64,000 nt of DNA from an uncultured delta proteobacterium. GTDB lineage: Bacteria > Myxococcota_A > Polyangia > Polyangiales > Polyangiaceae. The position numbers were made by a program, and so were the translations under genes. Location: the NCBI GenBank assembly GCA_963850305.1, contig CAWKKR010000001.1:96001-160000 (forward strand), written 5' to 3'. The notes beneath the pieces are model-generated. The model worked only from the letters and a program-made list of their open reading frames with translations, did not search any database and was not told the origin of the DNA. Of this stretch, positions 23,378 to 54,452 are shown piece after piece (the stretch's first letter is position 1; each line of letters begins with the position of its first letter).

Positions 23378-24730
23378 GTGAAGCTCTCCTGCCCCTCCTG
23401 TGCCGCCAAGTACTCCATCGCCGACGAGAAGGTTCAAGACCGACTCGCGAAGATTCGCTGCCGAAAGTGCAGCGCGACGATCATCGTCGACGGAAAAGTG
23501 GATCCGCCCAACGTCTACACTTCGGACACCGGCGCGGCTCCCGCTGCTGACTACGGGGACGGCGGCAACGACACCGGTGCCGGCGAATACTCGGTCGACT
23601 TCGGCGACAACGATCAGCGGTCGATGAGTCTCGACGACATCGTGCGCGCGTATCGCCGCGGGGAAATAACCGCGGACATGTACGTCTGGGCCGAAGGCAT
23701 GAGCGACTGGACGCCGATCTCGTCGGTGCCTGACATCATGGACGCACTCGGCGGCGGCGCACCCACCGCGGCAGCTCGGCAGGCCGCGCGCACCGGTGCC
23801 GGACGAGGCTCGGCGACCGATCTCTTCGGCGGAATCGATCGCGCGGGCAGTGAGGAAGACGTCATGACCAGCGCGCCGCACGGGCAAGCGGCGGCCGGCC
23901 TGGCCACTGGTGCACGGAACGAGTCGTCGGTGCTCTTCTCGCTGAGCGCGCTCACGGCGTCGGCACCCGCAGCGACGGCGCCCGCGCGCAGTGCCGTCGC
24001 GTCGGACGTCAAGGGTGACGACTCGGGCTTGATCGATCTCAAGGCACTCACCTCCACCGTCGGGAGCCAGCCGCCCCCCGGCCCGCTCGGGCTCGGCTCG
24101 GCGCCACTCGGACTCGGAGCGGCACCGCTCGGCATGGCCGCCCCGCTGGGCGGCATGACTGCGCCCGCCATGGCCGTCGACGGTCCGCTTCCAAGACCAC
24201 AGAGCAGCAAGACCGGTCTCTACATCGGGGGCGCGCTCGTCATTGTCGGCGCGCTCATTGCGGGCGCGATCGTCCTCAAACCGAGGGACGTCCCGAGCGC
24301 CGCAGCACCCCCTCCTGCCACAGCGCCCGTGGCCGTTGCGGCGACGGCGGCGCCCACGACCGAAGCCAAGAAAGACGAACCCACCGCCCAGCCTCCGGCA
24401 ACGGGCACCGCAGCAGTTGCCGACGCCCCCAAGGAGACCGCCGCGAAAGTGGCCGCCGCACCGTCGCATCACGCGCACTACGAGGGCAGGCCGCATTCCA
24501 GCGGGAGCAGCAAGAGTTCCGAGAGTTCATCGGGAAGCAGCAAGAGTTCCGAAACCTCGGGCTCCTCAAGTGGATCATCTGCCGCGTTCTCGGGCGGTTC
24601 GAACACGAGCGCGTCGAGCGGCAGTTCGGATTCGAGCGGTGGCGAGAAGAAGCACCACAAGAAGAAGGAAAAGAGCTGCAATTGCTCTCCTGGCGACCTC
24701 ATGTGCGCCATGCAGTGTGCGGCCAACTGA
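23378..24730 (+). CDS. Zinc-ribbon (MJ0042-type) + GYF_2 bitopic protein, AgmX/GltJ-like N-terminus
   Basis: CPSC..CRKC, YVWAEGMSDW, RNESSVLFSL, DDSGLIDL, TM segment, Ser-rich linker, C-terminal CNCSPGDLMCAMQC. Confidence 0.8.
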   Translation: MKLSCPSCAAKYSIADEKVQDRLAKIRCRKCSATIIVDGKVDPPNVYTSDTGAAPAADYGDGGNDTGAGEYSVDFGDNDQRSMSLDDIVRAYRRGEITADMYVWAEGMSDWTPISSVPDIMDALGGGAPTAAARQAARTGAGRGSATDLFGGIDRAGSEEDVMTSAPHGQAAAGLATGARNESSVLFSLSALTASAPAATAPARSAVASDVKGDDSGLIDLKALTSTVGSQPPPGPLGLGSAPLGLGAAPLGMAAPLGGMTAPAMAVDGPLPRPQSSKTGLYIGGALVIVGALIAGAIVLKPRDVPSAAAPPPATAPVAVAATAAPTTEAKKDEPTAQPPATGTAAVADAPKETAAKVAAAPSHHAHYEGRPHSSGSSKSSESSSGSSKSSETSGSSSGSSAAFSGGSNTSASSGSSDSSGGEKKHHKKKEKSCNCSPGDLMCAMQCAAN

Positions 24731-47708: not shown

Positions 47709-47738
47709 GGGGAGTTCACATGAAGATGGCAAGTTCGG

Positions 47739-48138
47739 AACCAAACCGGGCAGGTCACCTGCTCCGATCCGTTCACCTTGAACCAAACCGGGCAGGTCAC
47801 CTGCTCCGATCCGTTCACCTTGAACCAAACCGGGCAGGTCACCTGCTCTGATCCGTTCACCTTGAACCAAACCGGGCAGGTCACCTGCTCCGATCCGTTC
47901 ACCTTGAACCAAACCGGGCAGGTCACCTGCTCCGATCCGTTCACCTTGGACCAAACCGGGCAGGTCACCTGCTCCGATCCGTTCACCTTGAACCAAACCG
48001 GGCAGGTCACCTGCTCCGATCCGTTCACCTTGGACCAAACCGGGCAGGTCACCTGCTCCGATCCGTTCACCTTGAACCAAACCGGGCAGGTCACCTGCTC
48101 CAATCCGTTCACCTTGAACCAAACCGGGCAGGTCACCT
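47739..48138. repeat. Tandem array of 9 full plus 1 partial 42-bp units, each with an internal palindrome
   Basis: Unit AACCAAACCGGGCAGGTCACCTGCTCCGATCCGTTCACCTTG; only 4 substitutions (47849, 47949, 48033, 48102); no spacers; a degenerate copy continues to ~48169. Confidence 0.97.
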
Positions 48139-48234
48139 CATCCGGTCAGTTCAGTTACAACGGAACCGACGATCCGGCCCCGTCCTATCCAGTCCGACTG
48201 GACTCGAGCCGTAGCTCGCAATCAGCCGGTCAGC

Positions 48235-48820
48235 TCAGCCCTTCAGGTTCTTCGCGACGAAGTCCCAGTTCAGGAGCTTGTCAGTGAAGGCCTCGAGGAA
48301 GCCGTCGCGCTTGTTGCGGTAGTCGATGTAGTACGCGTGCTCCCAGACGTCGCATGTGAGGAGCGGCTTCGCCGTGGTGGTGAGTGGCGTCTCGGCGTTG
48401 GGCGTGGTGACGATCTTGCCCGTGCCGCCGTCGAGGACGAGCCACACCCAGCCGGAACCGAAGCGGCCCATGCCCTCGGTCTTCCACGCTTCACGGAACT
48501 TGTCCCAGCCGCCGAAGTCCCGGTTGATGAGATTCGGCCACTTCCCCACCCTTGGGGGCACCGCCCCCGCCGGGCTTCAGGCTCTCCCAGAAGAAGGAGT
48601 GGTTCCAGACCTGCGCGGCGTTGTTGAAGACGCCGCCGGTCGAGCCCTTCACGACCTCCACTAGCGTCTTCGAGGCTTCGGGCTTGCCCTCGAGAAGGCC
48701 CTTCAGCTTCGTCATGTACGCCTTGTGATGCTTCTCGTAGTGATACTCGAAGGTCTCCTTCGTCATCACGGGATCCAGCGCATCCTTGGAATACGGTAGC
48801 GGGGCAACCTCGAAATTCAT
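48235..48820 (-). CDS. sodB: Fe/Mn superoxide dismutase, apparent frameshift at ~48533
   Basis: LPY..DAL, HYEKHH, FNNAAQVWNHSFFW, FGSGWVWL, DVWEHAYY; AAQ motif suggests the Fe type. Confidence 0.9.
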
Positions 48821-49579: not shown

Positions 49580-50017
49580 GTGATGCTCCCTCTCCGCCGG
49601 CCCGATGGCGCGCCCATCGCGGCAAGGGTCACGGTTCGGCGTGCCATCGCGATTGCAGAGGCCGTGTTCGCTCGCGACGGCGCGCTTCCCCCCGTGGAGC
49701 GCCTGGAGTGGCTGGCGCTCGAGCTGGAGGACTTTCTGGCGCGGGCCGGGGCACGCTCGCGTTTCTTCCTCTCGCTGATGATCGGCCTGGTGTCCTTTCT
49801 GTCGCCGGTCTTCATCGGCAGGGGCCCGGGTGTGATGCGGCTCGCGCTCTGCGATCGGATCCGCGCGCTGACCACGCTCGAGCGTCGCTTCGGCGAACCG
49901 CTGATCGCCGTGAAAGCGTTGCTCTGCCTCCTCTATTACGAGCACCCCGACGCGGCCCGCGGCGTCGGGTTCGACGGCAAGTGCCGGCTCCCCACCCGCG
50001 GCCCGGCGTCCCCATGA
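49580..50017 (+). CDS. Small partner protein of the GMC oxidoreductase (gluconate-2-DH subunit 3-like)
   Basis: KALLCLLYYEHP..VGFDG; ATGA overlap with the GMC gene. Confidence 0.6.
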   Translation: MMLPLRRPDGAPIAARVTVRRAIAIAEAVFARDGALPPVERLEWLALELEDFLARAGARSRFFLSLMIGLVSFLSPVFIGRGPGVMRLALCDRIRALTTLERRFGEPLIAVKALLCLLYYEHPDAARGVGFDGKCRLPTRGPASP

Positions 50018-51540
50018 TCGTCGAAGGGCGCACCCTCGACTCCGATCTCGAAGACATGGCCGACGTCGTCATCGTCGGCTCCGGCGCGGGCGGTGCCGTG
50101 GTCGCCGCGCATCTCGCCGAAGCGGGGCAACGCGTCGTCGTCGTCGAAGAAGGACCCCACGTTCCCTCGGAACGCTATTCGAAGATGCGCCCCAGCGAGT
50201 CCATGCGGCACCTCTGGCGGGACGGCGGACTCACGATGGCCGTGGGGCTCGGCGATACGCCCGTCATCAACGTCATGATGGGCGAATGCCTCGGAGGGTC
50301 GTCCGTGCTGACGGGCGCCGTCTGCTTCCGGACACCCGGGGCGGTGCTCCACGAGTGGTCATCGCGGCTCGGATTGCGCGAGCTGGACGAAGCTTGCATG
50401 GAACGGTACTTCGCGGACGTCGAACGCGCCGTCCACGTCGAGGAAGTTCCGGTGTCGATGCGCTCGCGCTCGACCGTGCTGTTCGCCGAAGGGGCCGCGA
50501 GGCTCGGGCACCCGGTGGCGCCGCTGCGGCGCAACACGAAGAATTGCCGCGGCTGCGGGCGCTGCAACTTCGGCTGCCCGGAAGGCGCCAAGATGAGCGT
50601 CGATGTGACGTACCTGGAACGCGCAGTCGCCGCAGGAGCCCGCATTTACTCCGATGCGCACGTCGAGCGCGTACTGACGAAGGGCGCCCGCGCCGTCGGC
50701 GTGACAGGGCAGCTCCGAGGAGGACAGGGGCGCCCCTCGCGGATGCGGTTCAGGATCCACGCGAGACGCGTCGTCCTGGCAGCGGGCGCTTATTGCACGC
50801 CGTTACTCCTCGAACGAACCGGCGTGGGTCGAGCATCGGGCCAGCTCGGCAAGAATCTGACGCTCCACCCGGGTTTTCGCATGATGGCGCGCTTCGACGA
50901 GCGAGTGGAAGGCTGGAAGGGCTCCCTTCAGAGCGCCTATTGTCACGCCTACGAGAAAGAACGCATCAACATGGTCGGCCTCTTCGTACCGCCCGGCGTC
51001 CTCGCCGGAACGCTGCCGGGGATCGGCGACGATCACGCGACCCATGCAGAGCTCATCCCTCACCTCGCCGTGTTCGGGGGCATGATTCACGACGAACCCA
51101 GCGGACGCGTGCATCATGTCTTCGGTCGCCGCGCGATCAGCTACCGCCTTGCACCGGGAGACAGTCGCGCCATGTCGCGAGCGCTCACCATTCTCGGCGA
51201 GACCTTCTTCGCGGCAGGCGCACGGGAAGTCTTCCTGCCGATCCTGGGCTTTGGCGCTGCCGATGCGGATCGCTTTCGCAAGATCGACTTCGATCGCGTC
51301 CCGCGCCGGAAGCTCGAATGCGCCTCGCAGCATCCCCTCGGCACGGCGCGCATGGGTATATCCAAGGAGCACGCCGTCGTGTCGCCCGACGGCGAGACGT
51401 GGGAACTCGAGGGGCTCTTCGTCGCGGATGGCAGCATCATGCCGACAAGCCTCGGCGTGAACCCGCAGGAAACCATCATGGCCATGGCGACTCGCATCGC
51501 GTGGAAGCTCCGCGAGGGACCGAGAAAACCGACGGACTGA
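50014..51540 (+). CDS. GMC-family FAD oxidoreductase
   Basis: GSGAGG, LGGSS, CRGCGRCNFGC, HPLGTARM, DGSIMPTSLGVNPQ. Confidence 0.92.
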   Translation: MIVEGRTLDSDLEDMADVVIVGSGAGGAVVAAHLAEAGQRVVVVEEGPHVPSERYSKMRPSESMRHLWRDGGLTMAVGLGDTPVINVMMGECLGGSSVLTGAVCFRTPGAVLHEWSSRLGLRELDEACMERYFADVERAVHVEEVPVSMRSRSTVLFAEGAARLGHPVAPLRRNTKNCRGCGRCNFGCPEGAKMSVDVTYLERAVAAGARIYSDAHVERVLTKGARAVGVTGQLRGGQGRPSRMRFRIHARRVVLAAGAYCTPLLLERTGVGRASGQLGKNLTLHPGFRMMARFDERVEGWKGSLQSAYCHAYEKERINMVGLFVPPGVLAGTLPGIGDDHATHAELIPHLAVFGGMIHDEPSGRVHHVFGRRAISYRLAPGDSRAMSRALTILGETFFAAGAREVFLPILGFGAADADRFRKIDFDRVPRRKLECASQHPLGTARMGISKEHAVVSPDGETWELEGLFVADGSIMPTSLGVNPQETIMAMATRIAWKLREGPRKPTD

Positions 51541-51585
51541 GCCCGACCGTCCGTGCCCCGTTCCGCACCGCGTAACGGGAGTGCT

Positions 51586-52425
51586 ATGAAACGCCCCACC
51601 GTGGCCGACGATGCAACGCGGCCGTTCGGCCTCGACCTCCGATACGATTGTGAAACACACGTCCTGCCGCGGGGACTGTCGCAGCGGTTCGTGCGGCTCG
51701 GCCTGGACGAGGCAGGACGTGAATACCTGGCGAGAGCGCTTGCGACGCGACCGGGTCGCGCGAAGACCACTCTGCACCGCGTTCTCCGGACGTGGATGTC
51801 GGACTTCGACGTCAACGGTTTGCTCGACATGTATCCGATGCACCTGCTCGGTACGACCCAGTGGCGTGAGTTGCTTGGCGAGGACCGCGCCCGAAGGCAC
51901 CTGGACGTCGGGGCGGGATCCGGCGACGTGACCCGCACGTTTGCTCCGCTGGTCGGGGAGACGGTGACGACGGAGACGTCGCGGGTGATGGCCCGAAAGC
52001 TCCGCCGGGACGGCTTCCGCTGCTACGAAGCCGACCTTTCGGAGGCTGACGTGCCGGACCCGGGCTATGACGTCGTCACTTGTCTGAACGTGCTTGACCG
52101 GTGCGCGCGACCGCGCTCGCTCCTGCGAAAGCTGGGCGACGCGCTTTCGCCCGGGGGGCACCTGGTGCTCGCGACGCCGCTGCCGTTCGATCCGTTCGTC
52201 TATGACGGACCCGCGTCGCGCGCGCCACTCGAGAGCCTCGACCTGAATGGCGATGGCTGGGAACACTCGGTCGCACGCCTTGCGGAAAATGTGCTCGAGC
52301 CGCTCGGGTTCCGGATAGAAAAAGTGTCGCGGGTTCCTTACCTGTGCCGCGGCGACGCCGAACGGCCCATCTACGTGCTCGACGACGCGCTCCTGGTCTG
52401 TGCAAAAACGGAACGCCGCAGCTAG
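51586..52425 (+). CDS. METTL9/DREV-like SAM-dependent methyltransferase
   Basis: NGLL..M, LDVGAGSGDVT, TETS..M, YDVVTCLNVLDRC, LVLA.PLPF.PFV, SRVPYLCRGD, YVLDDA. Confidence 0.85.
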   Translation: MKRPTVADDATRPFGLDLRYDCETHVLPRGLSQRFVRLGLDEAGREYLARALATRPGRAKTTLHRVLRTWMSDFDVNGLLDMYPMHLLGTTQWRELLGEDRARRHLDVGAGSGDVTRTFAPLVGETVTTETSRVMARKLRRDGFRCYEADLSEADVPDPGYDVVTCLNVLDRCARPRSLLRKLGDALSPGGHLVLATPLPFDPFVYDGPASRAPLESLDLNGDGWEHSVARLAENVLEPLGFRIEKVSRVPYLCRGDAERPIYVLDDALLVCAKTERRS

Positions 52426-52599: not shown

Positions 52600-52974
52600 A
52601 TGGCGAGGAGCAAGGCAGGAACGCGATTGAAGGTGGTGTTCGAACAGGAGGGGTCCGGCTGGCGTGCGTCGGCTTCCGGCTCCGAAGCGTGGGGACGGAG
52701 CCTCTCGGAGGCGCGGCGCAAGATCAAGAAGGCGCTCGGGGCGACCGGGAAAAAGGCAGAACTCGTCGAGGACGTGCGCCTTCCGGCAAGCGCAAAGAAG
52801 GACCTCGAGAAGTATGCCGAGGCACGGCAACGAGCGCAGGCCGAGGTCGCGAATCTCCGGTACGCGACACGTCACGTGGTCGCGACCCTCACGGGCAAGT
52901 TCGGCATCAGCCTGCGGGATGCGAGCTCTCTGCTCGGCCTGTCGCGAGAGCGTGTCCGCCAGCTGACTGCCTGA
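52600..52974 (+). CDS. HicB-like protein with C-terminal HTH
   Basis: GW.A..WGRSLSEARRKI (HicB-type partial RNase H fold); SLRDASSLLGLSRERVRQL HTH. Confidence 0.7.
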   Translation: MARSKAGTRLKVVFEQEGSGWRASASGSEAWGRSLSEARRKIKKALGATGKKAELVEDVRLPASAKKDLEKYAEARQRAQAEVANLRYATRHVVATLTGKFGISLRDASSLLGLSRERVRQLTA

Positions 52975-53064: not shown

Positions 53065-53147
53065 GCCGAAGTGGCGGAATGGCAGACGCGGCGGACTCAA
53101 AATCCGTTGTCTTCACGGACGTGTGGGTTCGAGTCCCACCTTCGGCA
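53065..53147 (+). tRNA. tRNA-Leu (CAA)
   Basis: GCCGAAG/CTTCGGC acceptor stem, TGGCAGAC D-loop, anticodon CAA at 53098-53100, long variable arm, GGTTCGAGTCCC T-arm; CCA not encoded. Confidence 0.97.
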
Positions 53148-53227
53148 CTGGCGAGCAAGGGACTGAGAGCGTATCGGATCGACGTGATGGTTGCGGCGTG
53201 CCGCATCCGAGCAAGGAGCCGACGGAA

Positions 53228-53607: not shown

Positions 53608-54452
53608 ATGGCGGACGACCGGAAACCGAGCCGCAGTGACGCGCCCGGCCACGACCTGAGCCGCGAACGGGAGCAGGTTCTGAAAACGTTCTCGAAAGGC
53701 GCCGCGCTCACGAGGGAATTCGTAGAGGAATACGAATCGCTTCAACGGAAGGCTCAAGAACTCCAGGCCGAAAACGGAAGGCTACGCGCCGCAATCGAAG
53801 CTGACGACGCGATTCGCGATCTCATCAAGAAGATCGAAGCGCTGGAGTTCGAGAAAAAGAGCTCCTCTCGCACTACCGTCGGGTGGAAGAAGTGACGTCG
53901 GATTTCAACGCGCGCTTCCACGAGATGGAGGACGATTTTGCGAATCTGGCCAACCTGTTCGTCGCGAGCAGCAGCTTGCACTCGAGCCTCTCGCCGAGAG
54001 CCGTGACCCGTAGATTGAAGGAGGTGCTCGAGCAACTGGTGGGCGCGGAGCAATTCGGCGTGTACCTGGCGACACACGACGGCCGCTCGCTCGACGCGAT
54101 TGCGGAGGCCGGTCTCGGCGCGGACGCACCGTCGGCGGAGACGCTGGCTGCAGGCCCGGTGGGCGACGTCGCGAGAAGCGGGGTGGCGCGCATCGATGAC
54201 GACGCGGACCCGAGCCTCGGGACCATCGAGAAACCGCCGGCTGTTTTCCCGCTTCAGATCGACGACAACGTGGTCGGCGTGGTCGCGATTTTCCGGAGCT
54301 TCGGCCAAAAGACCAGGTTTTCGACGGTGGATTTCGAGCTGTTCAAGCTGCTGGGGCAGCACGCCGCGGCTGCGCTCATGAGCTCGGGCCTGTACGCTCA
54401 AGCCGAGCGGAAGCTCCCTGGCCCCGAGGCCTTCGGGGATCTGAGTCGCTAA
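53608..54452 (+). CDS. Coiled-coil + GAF domain protein, apparent frameshift at A-run 53854-53858
   Basis: Adding one base gives FEKKELLSHYRRVEEV; LANLFVAS..LHSSL and GAF-type FPL..VVGV..DFELF..LG.HAA. Confidence 0.8.

Follow-up and report, generated by a model that had tools for sequence, protein, structure and literature searches.

The closest described system is human METTL9, a protein-L-histidine N-pros-methyltransferase (PDB 7YF2-4, 7Y9C, 8GZE/F, 9VPQ). According to the available text of PMC7873184, its substrates include NDUFB3 of complex I, and it lowers zinc binding of His peptides. Partial texts of other reports state that D213, by holding the imidazole N3, underlies the N1 methylation mechanism (PMC10073072, PMC10308197, PMC13027442) and that the E174A mutant is inactive (PMC10073072, PMC12269839). 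Peptide binding was abolished by D300A and Y306A/L308A (PMC10073072, in part) and by R123A and E249A, and it was lowered 6-10-fold by T115A and V241G (PMC10308197, in part). The non-animal orthologue of Ostreococcus tauri makes 1-methylhistidine with its own specificity, and eukaryotic orthologues vary in specificity while all keep HxH (PMC12269839, available part). The accessible portions of PMC7873184, PMC12269839 and PMC13027442 present METTL9 as a eukaryotic protein, and the strings 'bacteri' and 'prokaryot' never occur in the last of these, a 2026 review. PMC8662637 is limited to animals and PMC12002111 is about an N-terminal methylation, as far as their available text extends. A literature search, with subscription papers largely outside its reach, found no bacterial METTL9 and no bacterial protein-histidine methyltransferase. 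Archaeal methyl-coenzyme M reductase carries methylhistidine.

In this study, we analyzed a window of 64,000 nucleotides from an uncultured delta proteobacterium of the Polyangiaceae (contig CAWKKR010000001.1, positions 96,001 to 160,000), in which one gene had been predicted from the letters to encode a METTL9 homologue. As shown in Table 1, the gene is a single open frame, from ATG to TAG. The motifs named in the original prediction were all present and in the order given there: NGLL at residues 77-80, LDVGAGSGDVT at 106-116, TETSRVM at 129-135, YDVVTCLNVLDRC..P..LL at 161-180, VLATPLPFDPFV at 194-205, SRVPYLCRGD at 248-257, and YVLDDA at 263-268. An HMM search matched Pfam DREV (PF05219) over its full length with an E-value of 7e-47 and 160 bits against a curated cut-off of 26 (residues 20-272, profile positions 2-263 of 265). 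The best generic methyltransferase family in Pfam reached only 56 bits on the same protein; the best hits were thus not generic Methyltransf_11/23 proteins without METTL9 active-site residues. None of the NCBIfam models matched at its cut-off. In the PDB, METTL9 took the four best places (E 1e-35 to 1e-34, with 1e-35 for the human and 1.4e-34 for the Ostreococcus protein), and the next sequence followed at 3e-6. When a profile of 119 bacterial sequences was compared with the PDB, METTL9 matched at 1e-65 to 1e-62 and the next entry at 1e-8.

The DREV/METTL9 fold was also predicted from a structural model. The AlphaFold (AF2) model had a pLDDT of 95, with a predicted 7-beta-strand core, an N-terminal helical segment, and long beta6/beta7. 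It matched METTL9 with a Foldseek TM of 0.85, and the VIA comparison gave Z 33.9 and an rmsd of 1.6 A to 7YF3 over 254 aligned residues (model 18-275). Ostreococcus METTL9 (PDB 8BVI) followed with Z 30.7 and 38% identity in the structural alignment, and identity to human METTL9 was about 34% over the whole DREV domain. Neighbours in the ESM Atlas, taken as a lead only, were two mostly bacterial DREV clusters, in which Myxococcota were commonest, and then eukaryotic DREV clusters. The DREV match begins at residue 20 and no signal peptide is evident, in contrast to human METTL9, which has one; the bacterial host and an activity that is so far a prediction are the other differences. The HMM search, the PDB sequence search and the model comparison fully support the predicted homology and demonstrate that the gene encodes a real, intact, full-length member of the DREV/METTL9 family. 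The Pfam tag DREV is already on these proteins in databases.

Table 1. Positions of the methyltransferase gene, its functional segments and surrounding features (numbered from the first letter of the window unless another sequence is named)
Feature	Position	Strand	Remarks
METTL9/DREV-family SAM-dependent methyltransferase gene	51586..52425	+	279 aa, single domain (Pfam, PDB sequence search, model)
Ribosome-binding-site-like GGGAG, 4 nt 5' of ATG	51577..51581	+	sequence; putative function
Helix/loop D73-M85, putative substrate-groove floor	51802..51840	+	alignment, conservation; roles from human structures
SAM motif I, D107-G113 (human D151-G157)	51904..51924	+	alignment, conservation
E130, post-I acidic residue (human E174)	51973..51975	+	62/62 genomic copies
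N168-V-L-D171-R172, putative target-histidine pocket (human N210, D213, R214)	52087..52101	+	D171, R172 in 62/62
P198-Y206 lid loop; P198, Y206 replace human V241, E249	52177..52203	+	alignment, conservation
Y252, C254, D257, Y263, L265 (human Y295, C297, D300, Y306, L308)	52339..52386	+	putative pocket for first His of HxH, -3 backbone amide anchor
GMC oxidoreductase pair, upstream: small gene 49580/49583-50017, GMC 50014-51540	49580..51540	+	not a required partner
124-aa gene, weak C-terminal helix-turn-helix match	52600-52974	+	directly downstream of methyltransferase
tRNA-Leu(CAA)	53065-53148	+	
Intergenic tandem array, 42 bp x 9.9 copies, 96% matches	47738-48153		
HHAH in zinc-ribbon/GYF membrane protein	24467..24478	+	rejected candidate site
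NuoL of source genome	G000:C7:332826-335414		long His/Asp-rich loop

Human residue numbers were transferred through the alignment with 7Y9C, and conservation was determined in 62 genomic copies, namely the window and 61 loci (a hand-spread subset of 111 matches plus three further loci). One of the copies lacks its N-terminus, so that 61 count at N-terminal positions. The SAM-binding residues D107, G109, E130, N168, and Y252 (human D151, G153, E174, N210, and Y295) are present. Nine residues were invariant in 62/62 copies: D107, G109, E130, D171, R172, P200, Y252, G256, and L265 (human D151, G153, E174, D213, R214, P243, Y295, G299, and L308). The target-histidine pocket of human METTL9 (N210, D213, R214, Y295, and L308) is wholly present in the protein, and N210 is kept in 54/62 copies. 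All five residues of the first-histidine pocket and backbone anchor (M126, C297, D300, Y306, and L308) are likewise found in the window protein, in which N77 and M85 correspond to human N118 and M126; T173 is also kept. Y252, D257, and Y263 are kept in 120/120 close database homologues, and D257 and Y263 (human D300 and Y306) in 24/24 loci of the window's family. Outside that family these two vary, with D in 46/62 and Y in 38/62 across all loci. The position of human D156 is S112 here and is variable in bacteria.

We also found that residues of the human peptide groove are not kept, a difference that the original prediction had missed and that speaks against the protein-histidine reading, given the loss of peptide binding in the human mutants. 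D73, F74, M82, and Y83 replace human R114, T115, R123, and G124, and the lid loop differs from human V241 and E249 as listed in Table 1. The comparison set was 32 eukaryote-type sequences, many of them unlabelled, chosen by tree side from 44 non-Polyangiales-like matches; the 12 rows omitted were partial, misaligned or on the bacterial side. T115 is T in 31/32 of these sequences, and F or Y stands there in 61/61 bacterial copies; R123 is R in 27/32 and in 0/61; G124 is G in 28/32, with Y, H or F in 61/61 bacterial copies; V241 is V in 30/32, with P in 58/62; and E249 is E in 30/32 and in 0/62. Ostreococcus METTL9 keeps R123, G124, and E249, whereas the bacterial clade does not. The pairs at positions 83 and 206 were Y/Y (21), H/H (13), H/D (8), Y/H (7), and Y/D (5). 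This pairing fits a contact that would stand in for the R123/E249 pair, yet it tracks family lines. Since five groove residues are replaced, we classed the protein as a METTL9-family variant, new by host and by groove, and not as a proven HxH enzyme.

Two further forms of the groove were seen among the relatives. All 12 copies of family f2 have His at 83, 204, and 206, so that the lid loop of the enzyme itself holds H-x-H (mostly H-V-H), possibly as a metal site or a self-inhibiting segment. In an offshoot of seven bacterial-side representatives (P0307, P0329, P0342, P0344, P0363, P0376, and P0385), the proteins have 260-274 aa, a shortened lid loop, and no D300.

By analogy with the human structures, E130 would bind SAM, and D171 would hydrogen-bond N3 of the target imidazole, leaving N1 to attack the methyl group. 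M85, Y252, C254, Y263, and L265 together with D257 would hold a second histidine and the peptide backbone at the -3 position. An aromatic or His pair (Y83/Y206, or H/H or H/D in other families) may replace the R123/E249 contacts, as far as can be read from the sequence, and other residues would then fit at x and at the flanks. The conserved residues strongly imply SAM and imidazole N1 chemistry, and we consider histidine N1 methylation a highly probable activity of the gene product. As to the substrate, we lean towards a cytoplasmic SAM-dependent N-pi histidine methyltransferase that acts on HxH-like protein segments, with a specificity shifted from that of the human enzyme.

The same residues bear on a second type of substrate. 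N-pi methylation of a small histidine compound (free His, a dipeptide, a terminal His, thiohistidine, or an ergothioneine-type compound) would agree with an invariant set that covers SAM and the target-histidine pocket while contacts to x and the flanks are swapped to larger residues; the bulky F74, Y83, and Y206 would close the peptide groove, and D73 and D75 would bind the amine. D75, however, is also D in 31/32 eukaryote-type sequences and is therefore no sign of a small molecule, and D257, Y263, C254, and M85, which read the second histidine and the peptide backbone, are kept here. The nearest folds outside METTL9 are small-molecule N-pi methyltransferases acting on 5-thio/selenohistidine (the OvoA C-terminal domain, OvoM, and OvsM), which have the seven-beta-strand fold in common with the protein. 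Their Z of 16-17 (about 17 for the ovothiol enzymes, the next structural family after METTL9) came with 14-19% identity and with alignments from about model residue 70, without the DREV N-terminal helices. CARNMT1, a carnosine and C3H zinc-finger histidine N1-methyltransferase outside the family (Z 15, 16% identity), makes 1-methylhistidine on a dipeptide and on proteins and is a precedent for either substrate class (PMC13027442, available part). EgtB scored above its cut-off in the source genome. The ovothiol pathway was searched for in that genome and not found: the best score with the OvoA model was 95 bits against a cut-off of 400 and fell on the EgtB gene, and the OvoA C-terminal model reached 29 bits against 170 there; on the methyltransferase itself, TIGR04345 gave 30 bits against 170. 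With no shared biosynthetic neighbour in the 62 loci either, a small histidine compound appears an unlikely substrate, although it is the main alternative to HxH-like protein segments.

A target other than histidine, such as nucleic acid, or a mainly non-catalytic role has been reported for eukaryotic orthologues, for example METL-9 of C. elegans (PMC13027442, available part). The authors of that review failed to reproduce the DNA activity and saw protein-histidine activity instead (same text), and the histidine pocket is invariant among the 62 copies. We regard this explanation as improbable here.

The original prediction had also suggested a small-molecule substrate from the GMC oxidoreductase pair upstream. 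The gap of 45 bp between the GMC gene, which ends at 51540, and the methyltransferase was given correctly, both lie on the same strand, and the pair is possibly co-transcribed with the methyltransferase. A GMC gene was near the methyltransferase in 14/24 loci of the window's family (f1) and directly upstream in 7, which could point to a step in a common pathway. However, none occurred at the 38 loci from other families, where Kelch, endonuclease-dU or other genes stand, and PhoX-like or opposite-strand genes intervene at other loci. In G556, a genome of the same genus with 99% completeness, the GMC pair and the downstream gene are both retained, 411 bp apart, and the methyltransferase is cleanly missing. 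The lead from the GMC pair is thus limited to one family, and since the pair outlives loss of the methyltransferase in G556, a common pathway seems very unlikely.

Neighbours were specific to the families. Besides GMC, f1 loci had PhoX-like genes (11/24) and superoxide dismutase (SOD, 16/24), f2 loci had Kelch genes (8/12), and the 15 loci of f7 had endonuclease-dU (5) or a small membrane protein (6). These family-specific neighbours, with no conserved biosynthetic neighbour in the order, are expected of a stand-alone modifier, and the lack of a partner across the order argues against a dedicated small-molecule cluster.

HxH was present in 16/121 direct neighbours, mostly in a single set of Kelch orthologues and another of DUF2891 proteins, and the cases are therefore not independent. 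The f2 Kelch-repeat protein is directly upstream in 7/12 loci (e.g., L044:6605-7672), its N-terminus resembles that of an exported lipoprotein, and RHGHA or RHGHG occurs in all 8 copies, probably as just the Kelch consensus. Small HxH precursor ORFs near the gene were rejected because only 4 unrelated matches appeared in 62 loci. Fusions were rejected as well: long frames over the gene resolve to separate genes of about 220-310 aa in 57/62 loci, and the other five were L092 with 417 aa, L039, L041, and L090 with no gene called, and L033, which is cut by a contig end. A search among proteins of 490-2000 aa for fused METTL9 found none, which is weak evidence. P0060, with a METTL9 domain and an NRPS adenylation/carrier tail, is likely chimeric given its abrupt junction and 1.7-kb contig.

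Other features around the gene were recorded as well. In related genomes different genes are inserted between the methyltransferase and the 124-aa gene. A Fe/Mn SOD gene (48235-48820, minus strand), for which no second copy was found in the genome, and the gene before a response regulator (53608-54452, plus strand) are frameshift-split in the window and intact in same-genus genomes, likely owing to assembly indels. Sequence similar to the 42-bp array occurs at two other places in the genome.

The 401 Myxococcota genomes included 19 with a match at E<=2e-25, and every one of these belongs to Polyangiales, the order of the window; the other sampled Myxococcota gave only 1e-8 over about 95 positions. 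In a class sample 4/151 genomes matched, again all in the order, and none of 14 control genomes from other phyla exceeded the cut-off. Within the order, a search that scored 8 candidates per genome found one copy each in 111/301 genomes (one of these carriers, G478, is flagged unpublished). By family, carriers were 29/95 plus the source genome in f1, 26/85 in f2, 27/32 in f7, 10/15 in f72, 10/10 in f73, 0/30 in f6, and 0/9 in f75. Five negative genomes stayed negative when all candidates were scored; G622 is one of them, and its contig stops within the GMC gene. A profile search of all 50%-identity representatives yielded 604 proteins at E<=1e-30, and the best 150 of these comprised 90 with the bacterial signature, 55 with the eukaryotic one, and 5 mixed. 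Viral contigs gave only generic methyltransferases or nothing, and plasmids gave no match. An offshoot relative (L216:2-712) lies on a prokaryote-like contig of 47% GC and adjoins a transposase-like ORF, which suggests that some copies probably left the high-GC Polyangiales.

Since the accessible portions of PMC12269839, PMC7873184 and PMC13027442 report the family from eukaryotes only, we considered eukaryotic contamination or a recent, decaying transfer. The gene is single-copy in a source genome of 6.26 Mb (95% complete) and lies amid bacterial genes on a 954-kb contig, and its host-like codon-position GC (0.73/0.49/0.79) is similar to that of the neighbouring GMC gene. The nearest named relatives are Polyangiaceae MAGs with 67-69% identity. 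A quick tree of the 62 copies needed 10 changes for 11 family groups, which is the minimum, against 33.5 in shuffles. The contig context, the codon GC, the intact single copies in 111/301 genomes of the order, and this tree refute contamination or decaying transfer, to which we assign next to no probability.

As the gene tree follows host families, it points to inheritance from the ancestor of the order with many losses, one of which is visible in G556. The gene thus looks inherited, dispensable, and lost many times. The original prediction had proposed a phylogeny as a test of gene transfer, and by the trees built here an old transfer may have run in either direction. The bacterial side formed a supported branch against eukaryote-type sequences (100/97, 43 rows), and a 218-row FastTree placed 129 rows there with a support of 86, the eukaryotic signature being absent from all of them. 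Rooting with eight distant methyltransferases placed the bacteria in one clade (98), in a three-way split with two eukaryote-type groups. Because the bacteria form one clade in these trees, eukaryotic METTL9 does not derive from inside the sampled Polyangiales. According to the available parts of two reports, myxobacteria have been proposed as donors to eukaryotes of plasmalogen enzymes (bioRxiv 10.1101/2025.10.10.681575) and of sterol pathways (10.1101/2024.11.01.621555).

Symbiodinium proteins from several assemblies (P0156 CAE7197568.1, P0157, and P0213 CAE7204140.1) have the bacterial state at the five groove positions and D73. They nest among Polyangiaceae copies beside genus g8 (93/98) on a long branch, and AU tests also allow a single eukaryote-side clade including Symbiodinium (p 0.24 and 0.14). 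A bacterium-to-dinoflagellate transfer is therefore possible, judged from these trees. In one tree the bacterial side also took in a diplonemid sequence and five unlabelled long-branch rows, all of which lay outside it once sampling was denser. P0184 (MGB1597132.1), which carries the label 'Promethearchaeia archaeon', is a METTL9 fragment of 113 aa from a contig of 1.7 kb. Its cluster is of eukaryote type, and the sister of that cluster has an apparent read-through intron; P0184 is probably a binning error and not an Asgard METTL9.

Candidate targets of the predicted protein-histidine methylation would be His-rich metal-binding loops, whose metal binding it would lower, as in eukaryotes. The original prediction had put forward HHAH in a zinc-ribbon/GYF protein of the window. 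Its sequence, its coordinates, and its place after the TM segment were correct, and it sits in a low-complexity tail there; as a methylation site it failed, because orthologues in 5/5 genomes hold no HxH at all. In our own gene calls (5,328 predicted proteins), H-small-H motifs were not enriched (353 against 325+/-20 in shuffles), and tandem HxHxH occurred about twice as often as in shuffles (49 against 23+/-5). The richest HxH carriers were NuoL, an NrfD/ActC-type subunit, HypB, UreE, a LarC-type nickel-insertion protein, and rubrerythrin, with the names NuoL, ActC, HypB, and LarC assigned from Pfam matches. The first five of these are the candidate targets in the source genome.

NuoL is attractive because NDUFB3, a substrate of human METTL9, is also part of complex I, and because the human enzyme lowers zinc binding of His peptides. 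We surveyed 30 genomes with and 30 without the methyltransferase. At E<=1e-150, 23 of the former and 24 of the latter yielded NuoL. The source genome was then added to the carriers, and the loop could be read in 23/24 carriers and in 24/24 non-carriers. For seven rows, in which the end of the loop could not be located, a stretch of 90 residues was used. Across the order (L145-L191), the loop is His/Asp-rich, with about 26-58 residues where the end could be placed and 3-14 His, and it was His-rich in all carriers and non-carriers read. In the source genome it covers about residues 526-580. H-small-H was present in 16/23 carriers and 12/24 non-carriers (p 0.11, among kin that are not independent). 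As carriers and non-carriers of the gene alike have the loop, NuoL is a candidate only, and its His-loop is a plausible substrate.

The most far-reaching interpretation is a protein-histidine N1-methyltransferase ancestral to Polyangiales that would act on His-rich metal loops including that of NuoL, would be the sister of eukaryotic METTL9, and would later have passed a copy into Symbiodinium. As a whole, we hold this combination to be rather doubtful. If it were true, NuoL-loop methylation would parallel the METTL9 methylation of NDUFB3 in mitochondria, and METTL9 would be added to the genes common to myxobacteria and the eukaryotic ancestor. The confinement to one myxobacterial order bears on gene exchange between myxobacteria and eukaryotes. 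The five natural swaps at peptide-contact positions provide a ready test of the specificity determinants of METTL9, and the shortened-lid offshoot without D300 offers the best prospect of a changed substrate. With a small, predicted single-domain enzyme and an invariant histidine pocket, bacterial protein 1-methylhistidine becomes a testable question with existing METTL9 peptide arrays. Histidine methylation on proteins would then be a bacterial case of a eukaryotic modification, in one myxobacterial order.
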